A stretch of 50,883 nucleotides of DNA from a virus. Its lineage: Duplodnaviria > Heunggongvirae > Uroviricota > Caudoviricetes. Numbering within the stretch: the stretch's first letter is position 1; the number at the start of each line of letters is the position of its first letter. A program made the position numbers and the translations under genes. The stretch is from the IMG/VR virus record IMGVR_UViG_2874962485_000005. One strand, 5' to 3'. The notes beneath the pieces were generated by a model. It worked only from the letters and a program-made list of their open reading frames with translations, had not been told where the DNA came from and made no database searches. Of the stretch, positions 35,629 to 37,658 are shown piece after piece.

Positions 35629-37233
35629 CTAGGTCTCCTTATAAACATCAGCCATCACATTGACCAGCCTATCAACCTCGACCTCTTTAGCATAACGGTC
35701 GTACGTAATAGACCCTGAACTATGCCCCATGATCGCCTGTGCATACGCCAACTCGACCCCATGTTGTTTTAACTGGGCCGCAACTGTATGTCTAAACGAG
35801 TGAAACGCTAAGCCGCTACGGTCTACGAGGACTTTAGGCAACAACGTCCGATTAAACCATTTACTCACCTGCTCACCGTAACCGTTCTTCATGAGACGCA
35901 GACCATCGAACACCATAGCGTCATCACCGTCAGCGCCTCTACGGGTCTCTACAAGCGCCATAAAGTCAGCCAATATAAAACCATAGGCCCCATCGACCAG
36001 AGGCACACAGCGGTCACTATGAGCGTTCTTGATGCTCTTACCGGGTAGACTACTATCGTCTTCATTGATATGAATATAAACGGTTCCCGCCTCAGTGGTC
36101 CTGACGTCTTTGACCTGTAGTTGGGCTATTTCATTGAGTCTCGCCCCAGTGATAGCAGCCAAGGCGGTAACATAATAATGATACGGCTTACCAGAGGTCT
36201 TCTGAGAGTATGCCTTAGCTGCGACCAGTAGTTGCCCCACCTGCTCCGTAGAGAAGGCGTTACGGGCCCCTGAGGCTTTACGCTGAGGGACTTTAAGCTC
36301 CAGACCCTCAGTCATGTTCTTTTTAATCAAGTCATTGCGCACAGCCCACCTAAAGACAGCAGCCATCTTAATAAGATACTTGTTGTTGATGGTAACGACA
36401 TCCAGACAATCTGTCTTATCTTCACGGCTCAACAGGTCAGCAAGTGGGACATCCTTGAAGCGCTGCTTACGGTTCCTAGGTAACTGCTGGAGCACATCAC
36501 GGACCCTAAGCATGTCAGCCCTGTTAGCGTCTGCATTGAGACCCAGATGGTCGAATATTTCGATTAACGCAGCGTGTGACGCCTTGTTTTCCCTTAAGGT
36601 TGCAGGCTTCCAGTTCTGATAGTTCTCCGCTTCGTATTGTTCAAAGAGGCTCGCTATGGTAATGCTAGGCGTAACTTCTGGTTTTACTTCTGGAGCATTA
36701 ACAGATAGGGACACAGAGTCTGCTTGGTTATCTTGCCTATCAATATCATTAAAAAGATCGACGTAATCTATCAGAGGCTGACTGTCTCCCGCTTCGATAC
36801 GCCTCATACAGGCTTTTAGCACCTTCAGGGCCTCATTGATGTAACGATGCTGGTCAATGCTTAGCGGCTCACTAGCCAGAGCATCGGTAAGGCTCTCACC
36901 AAGTTCTCCGTATTGGTCCCGGTAGATATCCCTCATGTCAGGCTCAAAGAGATCTGAACGGCCCATAGACAGTTCACACTCAGCGATGTCCTTAAGGTGT
37001 TCCCTCATTTCCTCATAGGTAGCGTTGGGTCTGTCTGCGTGTATTGCCTTGAGTGCTGCCTTTATGTGCCTTGAGTAAGCCATAGCGGTGCGTCTATCCT
37101 TGGTCCGTAATGATATTGAGGTCATTCTATCATTGTTTGATTGTCTGACCCTAAGACGGAAGTAGTAGACGCCGTTACGCTGGTAGAGATAGTAGACTGC
37201 TGGAAGTTTGTGACTACTGGATAGCTGAATCAT
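35629..37233 (-). CDS. Tyrosine recombinase / phage-type integrase with long N-terminal extension
   Basis: 534-aa ORF; C-terminal catalytic region ...AFHSFRHTVAAQL...GHSSGSITYDRYAK...; starts 115 bp downstream of a tRNA gene. Confidence 0.85.
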   Translation of the reverse strand: MIQLSSSHKLPAVYYLYQRNGVYYFRLRVRQSNNDRMTSISLRTKDRRTAMAYSRHIKAALKAIHADRPNATYEEMREHLKDIAECELSMGRSDLFEPDMRDIYRDQYGELGESLTDALASEPLSIDQHRYINEALKVLKACMRRIEAGDSQPLIDYVDLFNDIDRQDNQADSVSLSVNAPEVKPEVTPSITIASLFEQYEAENYQNWKPATLRENKASHAALIEIFDHLGLNADANRADMLRVRDVLQQLPRNRKQRFKDVPLADLLSREDKTDCLDVVTINNKYLIKMAAVFRWAVRNDLIKKNMTEGLELKVPQRKASGARNAFSTEQVGQLLVAAKAYSQKTSGKPYHYYVTALAAITGARLNEIAQLQVKDVRTTEAGTVYIHINEDDSSLPGKSIKNAHSDRCVPLVDGAYGFILADFMALVETRRGADGDDAMVFDGLRLMKNGYGEQVSKWFNRTLLPKVLVDRSGLAFHSFRHTVAAQLKQHGVELAYAQAIMGHSSGSITYDRYAKEVEVDRLVNVMADVYKET

Positions 37234-37347
37234 ATGTCTGCATGCCCTGAGAGGGTTACACAGTGGGTTACAGTAAGTAACTCTGCAAGGAGGCTTAAAG
37301 CCGTATCCCTTAGGATTCAGTAGGTTGGAGTACTTTAAGAAAGGTCA

Positions 37348-37422
37348 TGGAGCGGGCAGCGGGAATCGAACCCGCATCATCAGCTTGGAAGGCTGAGGTA
37401 ATAGCCATTATACGATGCCCGC
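37348..37422 (-). tRNA. tRNA-Gly (anticodon UCC)
   Basis: GCGGGCATCGTATAATGGCTATTACCTCAGCCTTCCAAGCTGATGATGCGGGTTCGATTCCCGCTGCCCGCTCCA; 7-bp acceptor stem, TTCGATT T-loop, encoded CCA. Confidence 0.85.
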
Positions 37423-37425
37423 ATA

Positions 37426-37501
37426 TGGTGCCGACTACCGGAATCGAACTGGTGACCTACTGATTACAAGTCAGTTGCTCTGCCTGCTGAGCTAAGTCGG
37501 C
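37426..37501 (-). tRNA. tRNA-Thr (anticodon UGU)
   Basis: GCCGACTTAGCTCAGCAGGCAGAGCAACTGACTTGTAATCAGT...GGTAGTCGGCACCA; one mismatch in T-stem. Confidence 0.75.
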
Positions 37502-37503
37502 GC

Positions 37504-37580
37504 TGGCCCACCACCGAGGACTCGAACCTCGCACCGTCAACTTAGAAGGTTGATGCTCTATCCGGATGAGCTAGTGGTGG
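37504..37580 (-). tRNA. tRNA-Arg (anticodon UCU), unusual C1-G72 first pair
   Basis: CCACCACTAGCTCATCCGGATAGAGCATCAACCTTCTAAGTTGA...CCTCGGTGGTGGGCCA folds as cloverleaf. Confidence 0.7.
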
Positions 37581-37581
37581 T

Positions 37582-37658
37582 TGGTGGCCCTTGCTGGACT
37601 TGAACCAGCGACCTGGCGATTATGAGTCGCTCGCTCTGACCAACTGAGCTAAAGGGCC
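37582..37658 (-). tRNA. tRNA with anticodon CAU (Ile2/lysidine-type or Met)
   Basis: GGCCCTTTAGCTCAGTTGGTCAGAGCGAGCGACTCATAATCGCC...CCAGCAAGGGCCACCA; resembles enterobacterial ileX-type tRNA. Confidence 0.75.

Follow-up and report, generated by a model that had tools for sequence, protein, structure and literature searches.

The stretch of DNA analysed here (the window, 50,883 nucleotides) carries on its minus strand exactly four tRNA genes, found with ARAGORN between 37348 and 37658 and scoring 56-70 bits against the Rfam tRNA model, followed in the same orientation by the gene for a 534-residue tyrosine integrase and then by a block of T7-type promoters (Table 1). A first-pass annotation of the sequence had reported this order of tRNAs, integrase and T7 promoters, and the ARAGORN and open reading frame coordinates, together with three exact copies of a 23-bp promoter, bear it out; it had also put the integrase 115 bp after tRNA-Gly, where the adjacency stands but the distance to the ATG is 114 bp (37234-37347). 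Besides the tRNAs, the Rfam scan of the window returned only antisense 'Plastid-ycf2' matches below threshold, which are spurious.

Table 1. Features of the element, its target and its surroundings in the window.
Feature	Position	Strand	Basis or remark
Rac-like lambdoid prophage, late-regulatory and replication region	37659..47400	-	owns the tRNA cluster
tRNA-Met/Ile2 (CAT)	37582..37658	-	ARAGORN; Rfam tRNA 70.5 bits; first gene of prophage-borne cluster
tRNA-Arg (TCT)	37504..37580	-	ARAGORN, Rfam; prophage-borne
tRNA-Thr (TGT)	37426..37501	-	ARAGORN, Rfam; prophage-borne
tRNA-Gly (TCC)	37348..37422	-	ARAGORN, Rfam; integration target, gene still complete
attL core, last 18 nt of tRNA-Gly, TTCCCGCTGCCCGCTCCA	37348..37365	-	alignment; direct repeats of relatives
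Element left end (TGACCTTTCTTAAAGTACTCC...) and integrase upstream region	37234..37347	-	alignment
Tyrosine integrase, 534 aa, intact (stop codon included)	35629..37233	-	ORF, Pfam, PHROG
Junction-like signal CTCTGTGTCCCTATCTGTTA in the integrase linker	36699..36718	-	blastn-short against T7
121-bp x 3.1 tandem repeat, 97% identity, one promoter per unit	35248..35616	-	repeat analysis
T7 class III promoters, consensus	35518-35540, 35397-35419, 35277-35299	-	exact match
AT-rich (78-88% AT) 47-bp repeats, candidate T7-type origin region	34947..35082	-	downstream of promoters
Foreign insert splitting the element, IS911-like IS	28654..34879	-	IRL at 34879, IRR ending 28654
Element non-coding region resumed	28285..28653	-	homologous to L001, L009; also L001/L005 region
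First 52 codons of the element's Rha-family gene	28129..28284	-	cut by IS1 inverted repeat at 28128

The integrase is full length and has the C-terminal R..K..H-x-x-R..H/W..Y domain of tyrosine recombinases, with residues R365, K399, H478, R481, H504 and Y514 invariant in integrase alignments. It matches Pfam Phage_integrase (PF00589) over residues 329-516 (2.1e-17) and the PHROG_1 integrase family (1.9e-44), the PHROG alignment starting at residue 184. An E. coli homologue shares 96% identity with it, and a Shigella flexneri protein cluster with 769 members matches it at 100% identity. With its length and catalytic residues conserved, it is not the decayed pseudogene that the first-pass annotation had named as a finding that would overturn its reading. 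Domain analysis of the N-terminal 300 residues, which that annotation had proposed, was productive in part: there is a weak Pfam DUF6538 match at residues 15-63, but a PDB sequence search with the integrase gave no match and the AlphaFold model, built on a 20-sequence alignment, had a pLDDT of 39 and no usable N-terminal fold.

The integration site in a Rac-like prophage

Since the tRNA genes belong to a Rac-like lambdoid prophage, the element to which the integrase belongs is nested within that prophage. The same tRNA cluster is annotated in E. coli Rac-like prophages, and the region of the window beyond the cluster (37659..47400) has Pfam matches to ORF6N, DUF1133/Q-like, DUF1367, DUF977 and DnaC-like families and is riddled with insertion sequences. 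Starting exactly at 37348, the window is 98% identical to the prophage of E. coli FDAARGOS_944, in which tRNA-Gly is followed directly by holin and lysozyme genes, and 100%-identical empty tRNA clusters are present in several E. coli genomes. The tRNA-Gly gene of the window aligns as identical to the empty-site copy in locus L002, tRNA and element DNA meet between 37348 and 37347, and the left-end sequence beyond this junction is not present at the empty site and is the sequence found at the element end beside chromosomal glyU in E. coli 21AR0133. Sites occupied by a related element, with attL, attR and the same prophage flank, were found in EPSSH018 and L031, and the flank common to the empty and the two occupied sites reads GT(C/T)AGAGTCTTTCAGTCTGCGATGA. 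At its ttcA end the prophage carries intR/xisR of its own, and the integrase of the element occurs at chromosomal glyU without a prophage nearby.

The first-pass annotation had taken the tRNA 3' end beside an integrase for an attL, had advised comparison with related strains and had stated that the lack of any empty-site variant would count against this. The comparison yielded the empty site in FDAARGOS_944; the empty clusters also mean that the integrase does not accompany every prophage with this tRNA cluster, and the occupied relatives that retain attR agree with the earlier reading. The element to which the integrase belongs recombined into the 3' end of the prophage tRNA-Gly gene, and the sequence comparison shows the tRNA/integrase junction to be a true attL nested inside the prophage. 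The usual target of the family is chromosomal glyU; the target here is instead the tRNA-Gly(TCC) gene of a Rac-like prophage in Shigella flexneri. No attR had been spotted previously, and our repeat search through the whole window for a second copy of the tRNA-Gly 3' end likewise found none.

T7-type signals and decay of the window copy

The promoter repeat begins 12 bp past the integrase stop codon, with no open reading frame between the integrase and the promoters. It holds three exact copies of the 23-bp T7 class III consensus TAATACGACTCACTATAGGGAGA (-17 to +6), where none would be expected by chance, and the longer sequence AATTAATACGACTCACTATAGGGAGA is identical to T7 phi6.5, phi10, phi13 and phiOR with the upstream AATTAA included. 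All three point away from the integrase and towards the cargo. Among 5426 complete E. coli genomes, 91 have the same promoter block, in every case on the chromosome and without annotation. Downstream lies an AT-rich segment, giving the succession of promoters and AT-rich DNA seen in T7-type origins. Aligned locally to the T7 genome, this segment scores best at the primary origin (5.9 kb; 39) and around phiOL (38), shuffled sequences reaching 23-34; the margin is modest and partly compositional. T7 primase-site pentamers are enriched 3-11 fold in the non-coding regions of T7-type elements and about 2-4 fold in those of K1F type, but most of these pentamers fall in iteron arrays and for this reason we do not count the enrichment as evidence; instead of serving as primase sites, the GGGTC arrays may be iterons bound by a protein.

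Within the integrase gene, blastn-short aligns CTCTGTGTCCCTATCTGTTA with T7 nucleotides 149-168 (20/20 match, E 8e-5), that is, with the last 12 nt of the T7 terminal repeat followed by ATCTGTT, the class II RNA polymerase pause signal of the T7 concatemer junction (10.1101/2021.01.11.426313). Such a signal is read on the non-template strand in the direction of transcription, and the copy is so placed, lying on the same strand as the promoters. The signal is part of the integrase reading frame as TATCTGTT, and TATCTGT is nearly invariant in 15 of 16 relatives though the integrase linker around it is variable and indel-rich. The variant of the signal also co-varies with promoter type, phage K1F having ...GTCTC followed by TATCTGTAT and the K1F-type elements GTCTCCCTATCTGTAT. 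As long as the element is integrated, the promoters lie downstream of the junction-like signal, which can act only after circularisation or concatemer formation. Outside the promoters and this 20-mer, blastn-short against T7 or K1F returned nothing significant.

An end of the element at 34880 was considered and ruled out, as the DNA that begins there is an IS911-like insertion flanked by a 3-bp target duplication, TCT, beyond which element DNA resumes at 28653. The insert is assigned as IS911-like by its inverted repeat and OrfA sequences; within it lie an IS66-family element and a group II intron reverse transcriptase, which interrupt it in turn. The resumed segment contains TAGGGTCTCTC iterons, in direct and then inverted arrays, and CTATGGCCCT repeats, and leads into a Rha fragment that is 88% identical (tblastn) to residues 1-41 of the Rha protein of the relative L001, which in turn matches Pfam PF09669 (7.6e-18). 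The first-pass annotation had suspected that the element reached the IS1 junction at 28128 and had lost its attR there, and this is borne out by element DNA running from 28653 to 28129 and then into IS1. What is left in the window amounts to about 3 kb: the integrase gene, three T7 promoters, the AT-rich region, the iterons and 52 Rha-like codons, with no attR, capsid or DUF6971 sequence within the window. Judged by its sequence, the window copy is dead, having lost attR and all cargo through the IS911-like::IS66::intron block and IS1. Taken alone it is of modest value as the record of a dead copy, illustrating the use of prophage-borne tRNA genes as secondary att sites and the way in which insertion sequences dismantle such islands in Shigella.

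The element family and a possible satellite of T7-like phages

Complete relatives measure 4.3-6.4 kb and occur in at least 17 species of Enterobacterales. An 18-nt direct repeat of the tRNA-Gly 3' end bounds nine complete relatives at both ends, as expected if the junction in the window is an attL; relatives lacking the repeats would have spoken against this. Members are known from E. coli, Shigella, Klebsiella, Citrobacter, Proteus, Serratia and others, and homologues of the integrase number at least 264. Among E. coli strains with complete copies, FT130 and E110019 have a T7-type element of 4.3 kb, 21AR0133 a T7-type element that includes the capsid gene, and EPSSH018 and UMB1727 a K1F-type element with RAZR. 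The layout begins with attL and the integrase gene, sometimes followed by RAZR/PD-T7-4, and then one to four promoters directed into the cargo; after the promoters come an AT-rich region with iterons, a Rha/KilA-N-type DNA-binding gene, DUF6971, an HK97-fold capsid gene and attR.

T7-group promoters are present in 15 of the 17 species loci, every one on the integrase-to-cargo strand, and they are the consensus of T7-group phage RNA polymerases, matched to the phages of the host. Thus the K1F-type promoters match Kayfunavirus phages, with 8-10 sites per genome, and those of the Klebsiella member match Klebsiella T7-like phages (371 of 418 matched records being Klebsiella phages). In 11 of the 17 loci the gene overlapping the integrase is PD-T7-4/RAZR (3.4e-97); a DUF4145/HEPN gene overlapping the 3' end of the integrase gene is present in L003 and L009 and not in the window copy. 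Many relatives encode an HK97-fold capsid protein, conserved, well folded and paired with DUF6971, for which PHROG and Pfam gave no match to T7 gp10; a capsid gene is missing from the 4.3-kb members L004 and L005. Across the whole cargo of L001 and L003, scans of the open reading frames with Pfam and PHROG gave only Rha/Ant, DUF4145 and DUF6971, all else being marginal (E > 0.001), and in these scans no portal, terminase, protease, tail or replication gene was found. The matches in IMG/VR are solely prophage calls from isolate genomes. Contigs of 6.4-7.8 kb with the capsid gene were considered as excised circles and rejected, being assembly fragments that end in repeats or chromosomal genes. 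A description of the family was not found in the full-text literature searched, with incomplete coverage, on T7 satellites, T7-promoter islands, glyU and PD-T7-4. The family is distinctive and tied to T7-group phages, and it looks undescribed.

The integrase thus comes from a small element that entered the prophage tRNA-Gly gene and of which the window has a wrecked copy. We think it probable that its family parasitises virulent T7-like phages as a satellite and carries anti-T7 defence as well. Our confidence is evenly balanced on a more specific proposal, namely that virulent T7-like (Studiervirinae) phages here have their first natural satellite family, made up of tRNA-Gly islands of 4-6 kb that lack replication and packaging genes and have instead three copied helper cis-signals, together with a private HK97 capsid protein and promoter arrays that would act as a 'barcode' of exploitable phage genera. 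The cis-signals meant are the RNA polymerase promoters, the origin-like order of promoters and AT-rich DNA, and the terminal-repeat/class II pause junction hidden in the integrase frame.

Under the satellite model the element would remain silent until a T7-like phage infects the cell, whereupon the phage RNA polymerase would transcribe the cargo from the mimic promoters and the phage replisome would amplify the element, since tandem promoters followed by AT-rich DNA copy the T7 primary origin. After excision or concatemer formation, transcription could run round into the integrase gene and reach the copied junction/pause signal, which may serve as a packaging or cleavage cue for the helper terminase. 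What is said here of T7 origin architecture, and of how the concatemer-junction pause acts in packaging, follows the older T7 literature. Particles sized for about 6 kb might be built from the capsid protein that the element encodes. Against this model, the IMG/VR scan and the 6-7 kb contigs yielded no record of excision, amplification or packaging, the cargo scans found no portal, terminase, protease, tail or replication gene, the short members lack a capsid gene, and the resemblance to T7 origins is modest.

It is possible, though in our view rather unlikely, that the family is only a mobile defence island, never packaged and spreading by other means, in which the promoters act as an infection sensor that switches on toxic or decoy cargo (Rha/KilA-N, a capsid-like decoy, RAZR). 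The proven anti-T7 abortive-infection gene beside the integrase in most loci fits this, as do the short members with promoters and a KilA-N-type gene but no capsid gene, the failure to find terminase, portal or replication genes and the lack of encapsidation evidence in the IMG/VR scan. However, RAZR does not discriminate between satellite and defence island, because known satellites also carry defence genes, and a defence island leaves unexplained the copied terminal-repeat end and class II pause signal that co-vary with promoter type, the origin-like order of tandem promoters and AT-rich DNA, the conserved HK97 capsid protein paired with DUF6971 and the tight size range of 4-6.4 kb.

A decayed stump of a temperate T7-like prophage would account for the T7-type promoters, the junction-like signal and the capsid-fold gene, each of which belongs to a T7-like genome, and some Autographiviridae do carry integrases and target tRNA genes. 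We regard this as very improbable, as complete att-bounded copies span only 4.3-6.4 kb with the same gene order in many species and contain no RNA polymerase, DNA polymerase, terminase, portal or tail gene or fragment; the absence of nucleotide similarity to T7 or K1F beyond the promoters and the 20-mer, and of any capsid match to gp10, points the same way. Least credible of all is that the integrase and tRNAs are a single ancestral lambdoid-prophage unit, as their adjacency and shared orientation might suggest, or that the promoters, whose 23-mer equals the laboratory T7 promoter, are vector contamination. The former is refuted by the empty site, and the prophage's own intR/xisR and the integrase at glyU also contradict it; the latter fails in that the 121-bp repeats holding the promoters are natural and vary in sequence, the promoters are present in 91 E. 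coli genomes, and in other genera promoters of other phage specificities take their place.

Among virulent phages T7 is the textbook example, and the most widely used expression system is built on it, yet we know of no natural parasite of this phage. If correct, the satellite model would account for the frequent overlap of RAZR, the anti-T7 gene, with an integrase gene, and would provide a natural mobile element that outsources transcription, replication and packaging wholly to copied cis-signals, one of them, a packaging/pause signal, embedded in a protein-coding frame. It would also matter to therapy with T7-like phages of Klebsiella and E. coli, since such islands could interfere with the phages or be transduced by them.

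Comparison with known systems

RAZR, an RNase that acts by abortive infection, is triggered by the portal rings of T7/T3 (PMC13017515), and the PD-T7-4 gene 'often overlaps an integrase gene' (10.1101/2022.05.12.491691). The same family is evidently meant, given that the gene overlapping the integrase in many members is RAZR; the literature, however, treats RAZR as a single gene, and the window copy lacks it. Apart from the remark on the overlap, term searches of PMC13017515 and 10.1101/2022.05.12.491691 gave no mention of the carrier element, its phage promoters, the junction signal or the capsid gene.

PICMIs (phage-inducible chromosomal minimalist islands; PMC10803314) are Vibrionaceae islands of about 6 kb that bear an integrase, end in direct repeats, depend on virulent phages and carry defence genes; their integration site is beside fis, they need AlpA and a primase, and they lack a capsid gene. 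The terms 'T7-like' and 'Autographiviridae' are absent from that paper. The present family resembles them as very small integrase islands with direct-repeat ends and defence genes, virulent-phage dependence being known for PICMIs and proposed here, but it targets tRNA-Gly, is without alpA or primase and has helper RNA polymerase promoters, a junction mimic and often its own capsid gene.

The cf-PICIs (for example EcCI2), at about 12-15 kb, come with the full set of head genes (capsid, portal, protease, terminase, connectors) and use the tails of temperate siphophages. By contrast, the relatives described here have only the HK97-fold capsid gene and DUF6971, neither of which is in the window, and their signals point to virulent T7-like podophages. 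P4 (11.6 kb) has its own primase/helicase with Sid, Psu and Delta, and uses P2. It shares with the present family a tyrosine integrase at a tRNA gene, promoters built to answer the helper's transcription factor and, in its hotspots, defence genes; in contrast, the Pfam/PHROG scans of L001 and L003 cargo found no alpha primase/helicase, sid, psu or delta, nor the genes of PICIs and SaPIs (Stl-type repressor, alpA, pri-rep, terS, capsid-size).

An artificial parallel is offered by the laboratory T7 transducing plasmids of Chung and Hinkle (1990), which reportedly combine a T7 origin with a T7 concatemer junction. Both cis requirements have candidate counterparts in the element, namely promoters with AT-rich DNA and a junction sequence with a class II pause site, but the element would be natural, integrating and self-mobilising, with a capsid protein of its own.

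Site-specific insertion at tRNA-Gly

The first-pass annotation had read four minus-strand tRNA genes and the integrase beside them as a candidate left attachment site (attL) of an integrative element. ARAGORN and Rfam both recover the four tRNAs (see table). The window shares ~98% identity with a Rac-like lambdoid prophage carried by E. coli FDAARGOS_944, starting precisely at 37348 and continuing rightwards, and Pfam matches in this stretch are to ORF6N, DUF1133/Q-like, DUF1367, DUF977 and DnaC-like genes. In FDAARGOS_944 the same tRNAs run directly into holin, lysozyme and lysis genes, and intR/xisR, which belong to the prophage itself, occupy its opposite end beside ttcA. 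The cluster is therefore prophage cargo, and the prophage is not the owner of the 534-aa integrase.

This genome supplies the empty-site variant, tRNA-Gly...CCCGCTGCCCGCTCCA|GTCAGAGTCTTTCAGTCTGCGATGA (alignment A1). E. coli EPSSH018 carries a related integrase after this prophage tRNA-Gly, and CCCGCTGCCCGCTCCA is repeated 6.36 kb on, before the same prophage flank and holin; a second genome (L031) has this pattern of integrase, repeat and prophage flank. Most relatives occupy chromosomal glyU, with actS on one side and the ETT2/ygeQ region on the other, and are bounded by the 18-nt repeat TTCCCTTCGCCCGCTCCA; they measure 7.34 kb (IS5 included), 4.28, 4.26, 6.13, 6.4, 6.2 and 5.5 kb. Directly downstream of its tRNA-Gly, the window (TGACCTTTCTTAAAGTACTCC...) has exactly the same sequence as the left end of the copy at glyU. 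Taken together, these sites, repeats and the shared left end bear out the attL reading and demonstrate site-specific insertion at tRNA-Gly; the refuting outcome named in the first-pass annotation, a single ancestral prophage with no empty-site variant, did not occur.

The prophage tRNA-Gly is a rare secondary target, since EPSSH018 alone among 5426 complete E. coli genomes is occupied there; its last 10 nt and most of its T-arm are common to glyU. In EPSSH018 (20081-20155) and L031 (about 7800-7881) the integrated tRNA-Gly(TCC) now bears the element-borne, glyU-type 3' end CCCTTCGCCCGCTCCA, which by our reading of the sequence gives mismatches in the T-stem and at pair 7-66. Unlike these, the window tRNA-Gly retains its own 3' end, and the crossover point therefore differed. 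At glyU of E. coli 21AR0133 a second, unrelated island with a 650-aa integrase (950-3009) follows the attR repeat directly, in tandem, so that glyU houses an array of islands.

The remnant in the window

The integrase is no decayed pseudogene: it is full length, shares 96% identity with a homologue from E. coli and keeps all catalytic residues (R, K, H, R, H, Y). Its C-terminal part matches Pfam Phage_integrase (2.1e-17) and PHROG_1 (1.9e-44), residues 15-63 match DUF6538 weakly (Pfam), and the exact protein makes up a cluster of 769 members labelled Shigella flexneri, which makes S. flexneri the almost certain origin of the window. The ORF is intact, yet nothing remains in the window copy for excision.

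Features of the tRNA-integrase locus and its insertions
Feature	Coordinates	Strand	Remarks
tRNA-Met/Ile2 (CAT)	37582-37658	minus	ARAGORN, Rfam
tRNA-Arg (TCT)	37504-37580	minus	ARAGORN, Rfam
tRNA-Thr (TGT)	37426-37501	minus	ARAGORN, Rfam
tRNA-Gly (TCC)	37348-37422	minus	ARAGORN, Rfam
534-aa tyrosine integrase ORF	35629..37233	minus	start 114 bp downstream of tRNA-Gly
Presumed IS911-like insert, nested mobile elements	28654-34879		interrupted by IS66-family element and group II intron RT
IS66-family element tnpA/B/C	32023-34638		inside IS911-like element
Group II intron RT/maturase	29231-30754		inside IS911-like element

A mobile element, which we take to be IS911-like from its IR and OrfA sequences, is inserted after 34880 (IRL start 34879, IRR end 28654) with a 3-bp TCT target duplication. 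Another S. flexneri genome lacks most of the inner block of this insert, and a second, identical left inverted repeat of IS911 type lies at 6854-6880, its flank unrelated to the element. Element DNA restarts at 28653: direct and inverted arrays of TAGGGTCTCTC iterons lead into a Rha-family gene of which the first 52 codons survive, with 88% identity to its E. coli counterpart, and an IS1 inverted repeat truncates the element at 28128. The suspicion that attR was lost past this junction agrees with the result: attR, the capsid gene and the DUF6971 gene were not found in the window, which holds only a dead element remnant.

The same remnant occurs in other S. flexneri genomes, in some of which an IS has struck the integrase at codon 204. 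In two Shigella-like IMG/VR genomes (L033, 8001-8613; L034, 103-715) the same integrase is broken after residue 204 by a 1.33-kb IS, evidence that the locus is still decaying; three copies of this IS lie in the window (8799-10131, 14337-15669, 47400-48732). The same IS-ridden Rac-type prophage region also holds a sitABCD-like iron/manganese transporter operon (19975-23424), matching plasmid and chromosomal E. coli sit loci.

Family architecture and phage-like signals

Scanning one genome per species gave 17 loci in 17 Enterobacterales species (65-87% identity) of Klebsiella, Citrobacter, Enterobacter, Buttiauxella, Kluyvera, Shimwellia, Proteus, Pectobacterium, Serratia, Rouxiella, Lonsdalea and Edaphovirga. 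tRNA-Gly(CCC) lies just upstream of the integrase in 10, the remaining loci being at contig ends. The layout is conserved: the integrase comes first; the gene overlapping its stop is PD-T7-4/RAZR in 11/17 (PADLOC 3.4e-97); one to four phage-type promoter sequences follow, every one directed into cargo, then repeats and an AT-rich region, a Rha/KilA-N-type gene and, closing the element in nine of the 17, a DUF6971 gene and a gene for a 330-375-aa protein. RAZR is a HEPN RNase that acts by abortive infection and is switched on by portal rings of T7/T3 (PMC13017515); on its carrier, term searches of its discoverers' paper gave just the remark that it 'often overlaps an integrase gene' (10.1101/2022.05.12.491691).

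Neither Pfam nor PHROG gives a match to the 330-375-aa protein, which has 62 homologues among 1.84 billion representative proteins. We identify it as an HK97-fold capsid protein, because its good AlphaFold model (pLDDT 83.7, pTM 0.79) has 212 Foldseek matches in the PDB at E<=1e-3, all 50 listed of these being capsid proteins or encapsulins, and its BFVD matches are capsid proteins. Between the capsid gene terminator and attR of EPSSH018 (about 14066-13986, minus) a small ORF with a strong RBS encodes the hydrophobic 26-aa peptide MDLHKVYLVVFLLKLGLVVWLWAIRR, which could be a toxin-like or membrane peptide.

In sequence, the cis-signals are matched to the helper. The T7 promoter block already noticed after the integrase proves to be three exact class III copies directly after its stop, in a 121-bp x 3.1 tandem repeat. 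Their sequence AATTAATACGACTCACTATAGGGAGA, present once or twice in E. coli copies, is identical to T7 phi6.5, phi10, phi13 and phiOR, and the block occurs in 91/5426 E. coli genomes, annotated in none. EPSSH018-type elements have in its place ACTAAACTATCACTATAGGGA, the Kayfunavirus (K1F/ST31) promoter, of which each phage genome has 8-10 copies (517 phage records); AATTAGGGCACACTATAGGGAGA of the K. pneumoniae element matches Klebsiella T7-like phages (371/418 records, about 10 sites each). Some Citrobacter elements place three or four differing specificities side by side, and such mixed arrays suggest a multi-helper range. K. pneumoniae ATCC 13883 (7034-7610) combines K11-type promoters with one T7 consensus, and Citrobacter portucalensis (2335-2960) has four promoters of at least three types, each within a single element.

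The T7 primary origin consists of two tandem promoters and an AT-rich segment. In the elements 78-88% AT repeats follow tandem promoters, and the AT-rich part aligns best, within the T7 genome, with the primary origin (5.9 kb) and phiOL (scores 39 and 38 vs 23-34 for shuffles). Downstream of this region two 4.3-kb members carry the degenerate phi1.1A-like sequence AAATCAATACGACTTACTAATAGGAGA (L004, about 2717-2760; L005, about 2576-2605), preceded in L004 by three AATCAATACGA copies.

Within the integrase gene, on the promoters' strand, CTCTGTGTCCCTATCTGTTA (36699-36718) matches T7 nt 149-168 at 20/20 positions (E 8e-5), a stretch that covers the final 12 nt of the terminal repeat (the mature right end) and then ATCTGTT. 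Non-template ATCTGTT is a class II T7 RNAP termination/pause signal with one copy at the T7 concatemer junction (10.1101/2021.01.11.426313). At the junction of K1F itself the sequence is ...GAGTCTC|TATCTGTAT; its counterpart in K1F-type elements is GTCTCCCTATCTGTAT. In 15/16 integrase genes TATCTGT hardly varies, in a linker that is otherwise rich in indels and substitutions, which argues for constraint at the DNA level. The Pectobacterium carotovorum member has the capsid gene, lacks a CACTATAGG-type promoter and has CTACCTGT in its integrase gene in place of TATCTGT; this member may be adapted to another group of phages.

Proposed mechanism and relation to known systems

We propose that the element would be silent until a T7-like phage provides its RNA polymerase, which would then drive cargo transcription, while the phage replisome would amplify the origin-like region. 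On a circular or concatemeric form, transcription could extend to the junction mimic inside the integrase gene, a putative cue for the helper terminase, and small heads may be assembled from the element's private capsid protein. The chief alternative is that the element serves defence alone, its promoters acting as an infection sensor. RAZR in family members, the 4.3-kb members without a capsid gene and the failure to find packaging evidence for the family speak for it, but it leaves unexplained the junction mimic, the co-variation of mimic and promoter type, and the capsid gene, and we consider it unlikely, if deserving of serious weight. Descent from a decayed temperate T7-like prophage is very improbable, and we hold it equally hard to credit that the lambdoid prophage owns the integrase or that the promoters are vector contamination.

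We rate the family, on sequence comparison, as a probable novel variety of phage satellite or defence island, because an incompletely covering full-text literature search turned up no account of islands at tRNA-Gly that carry T7-group promoters, the family's gene content matches none of PICI, cf-PICI and P4, and its att site and genes set it apart from PICMI. In its proposed working it would stand closest to PICMI, small satellites of virulent phages, and to the capsid-forming PICIs.
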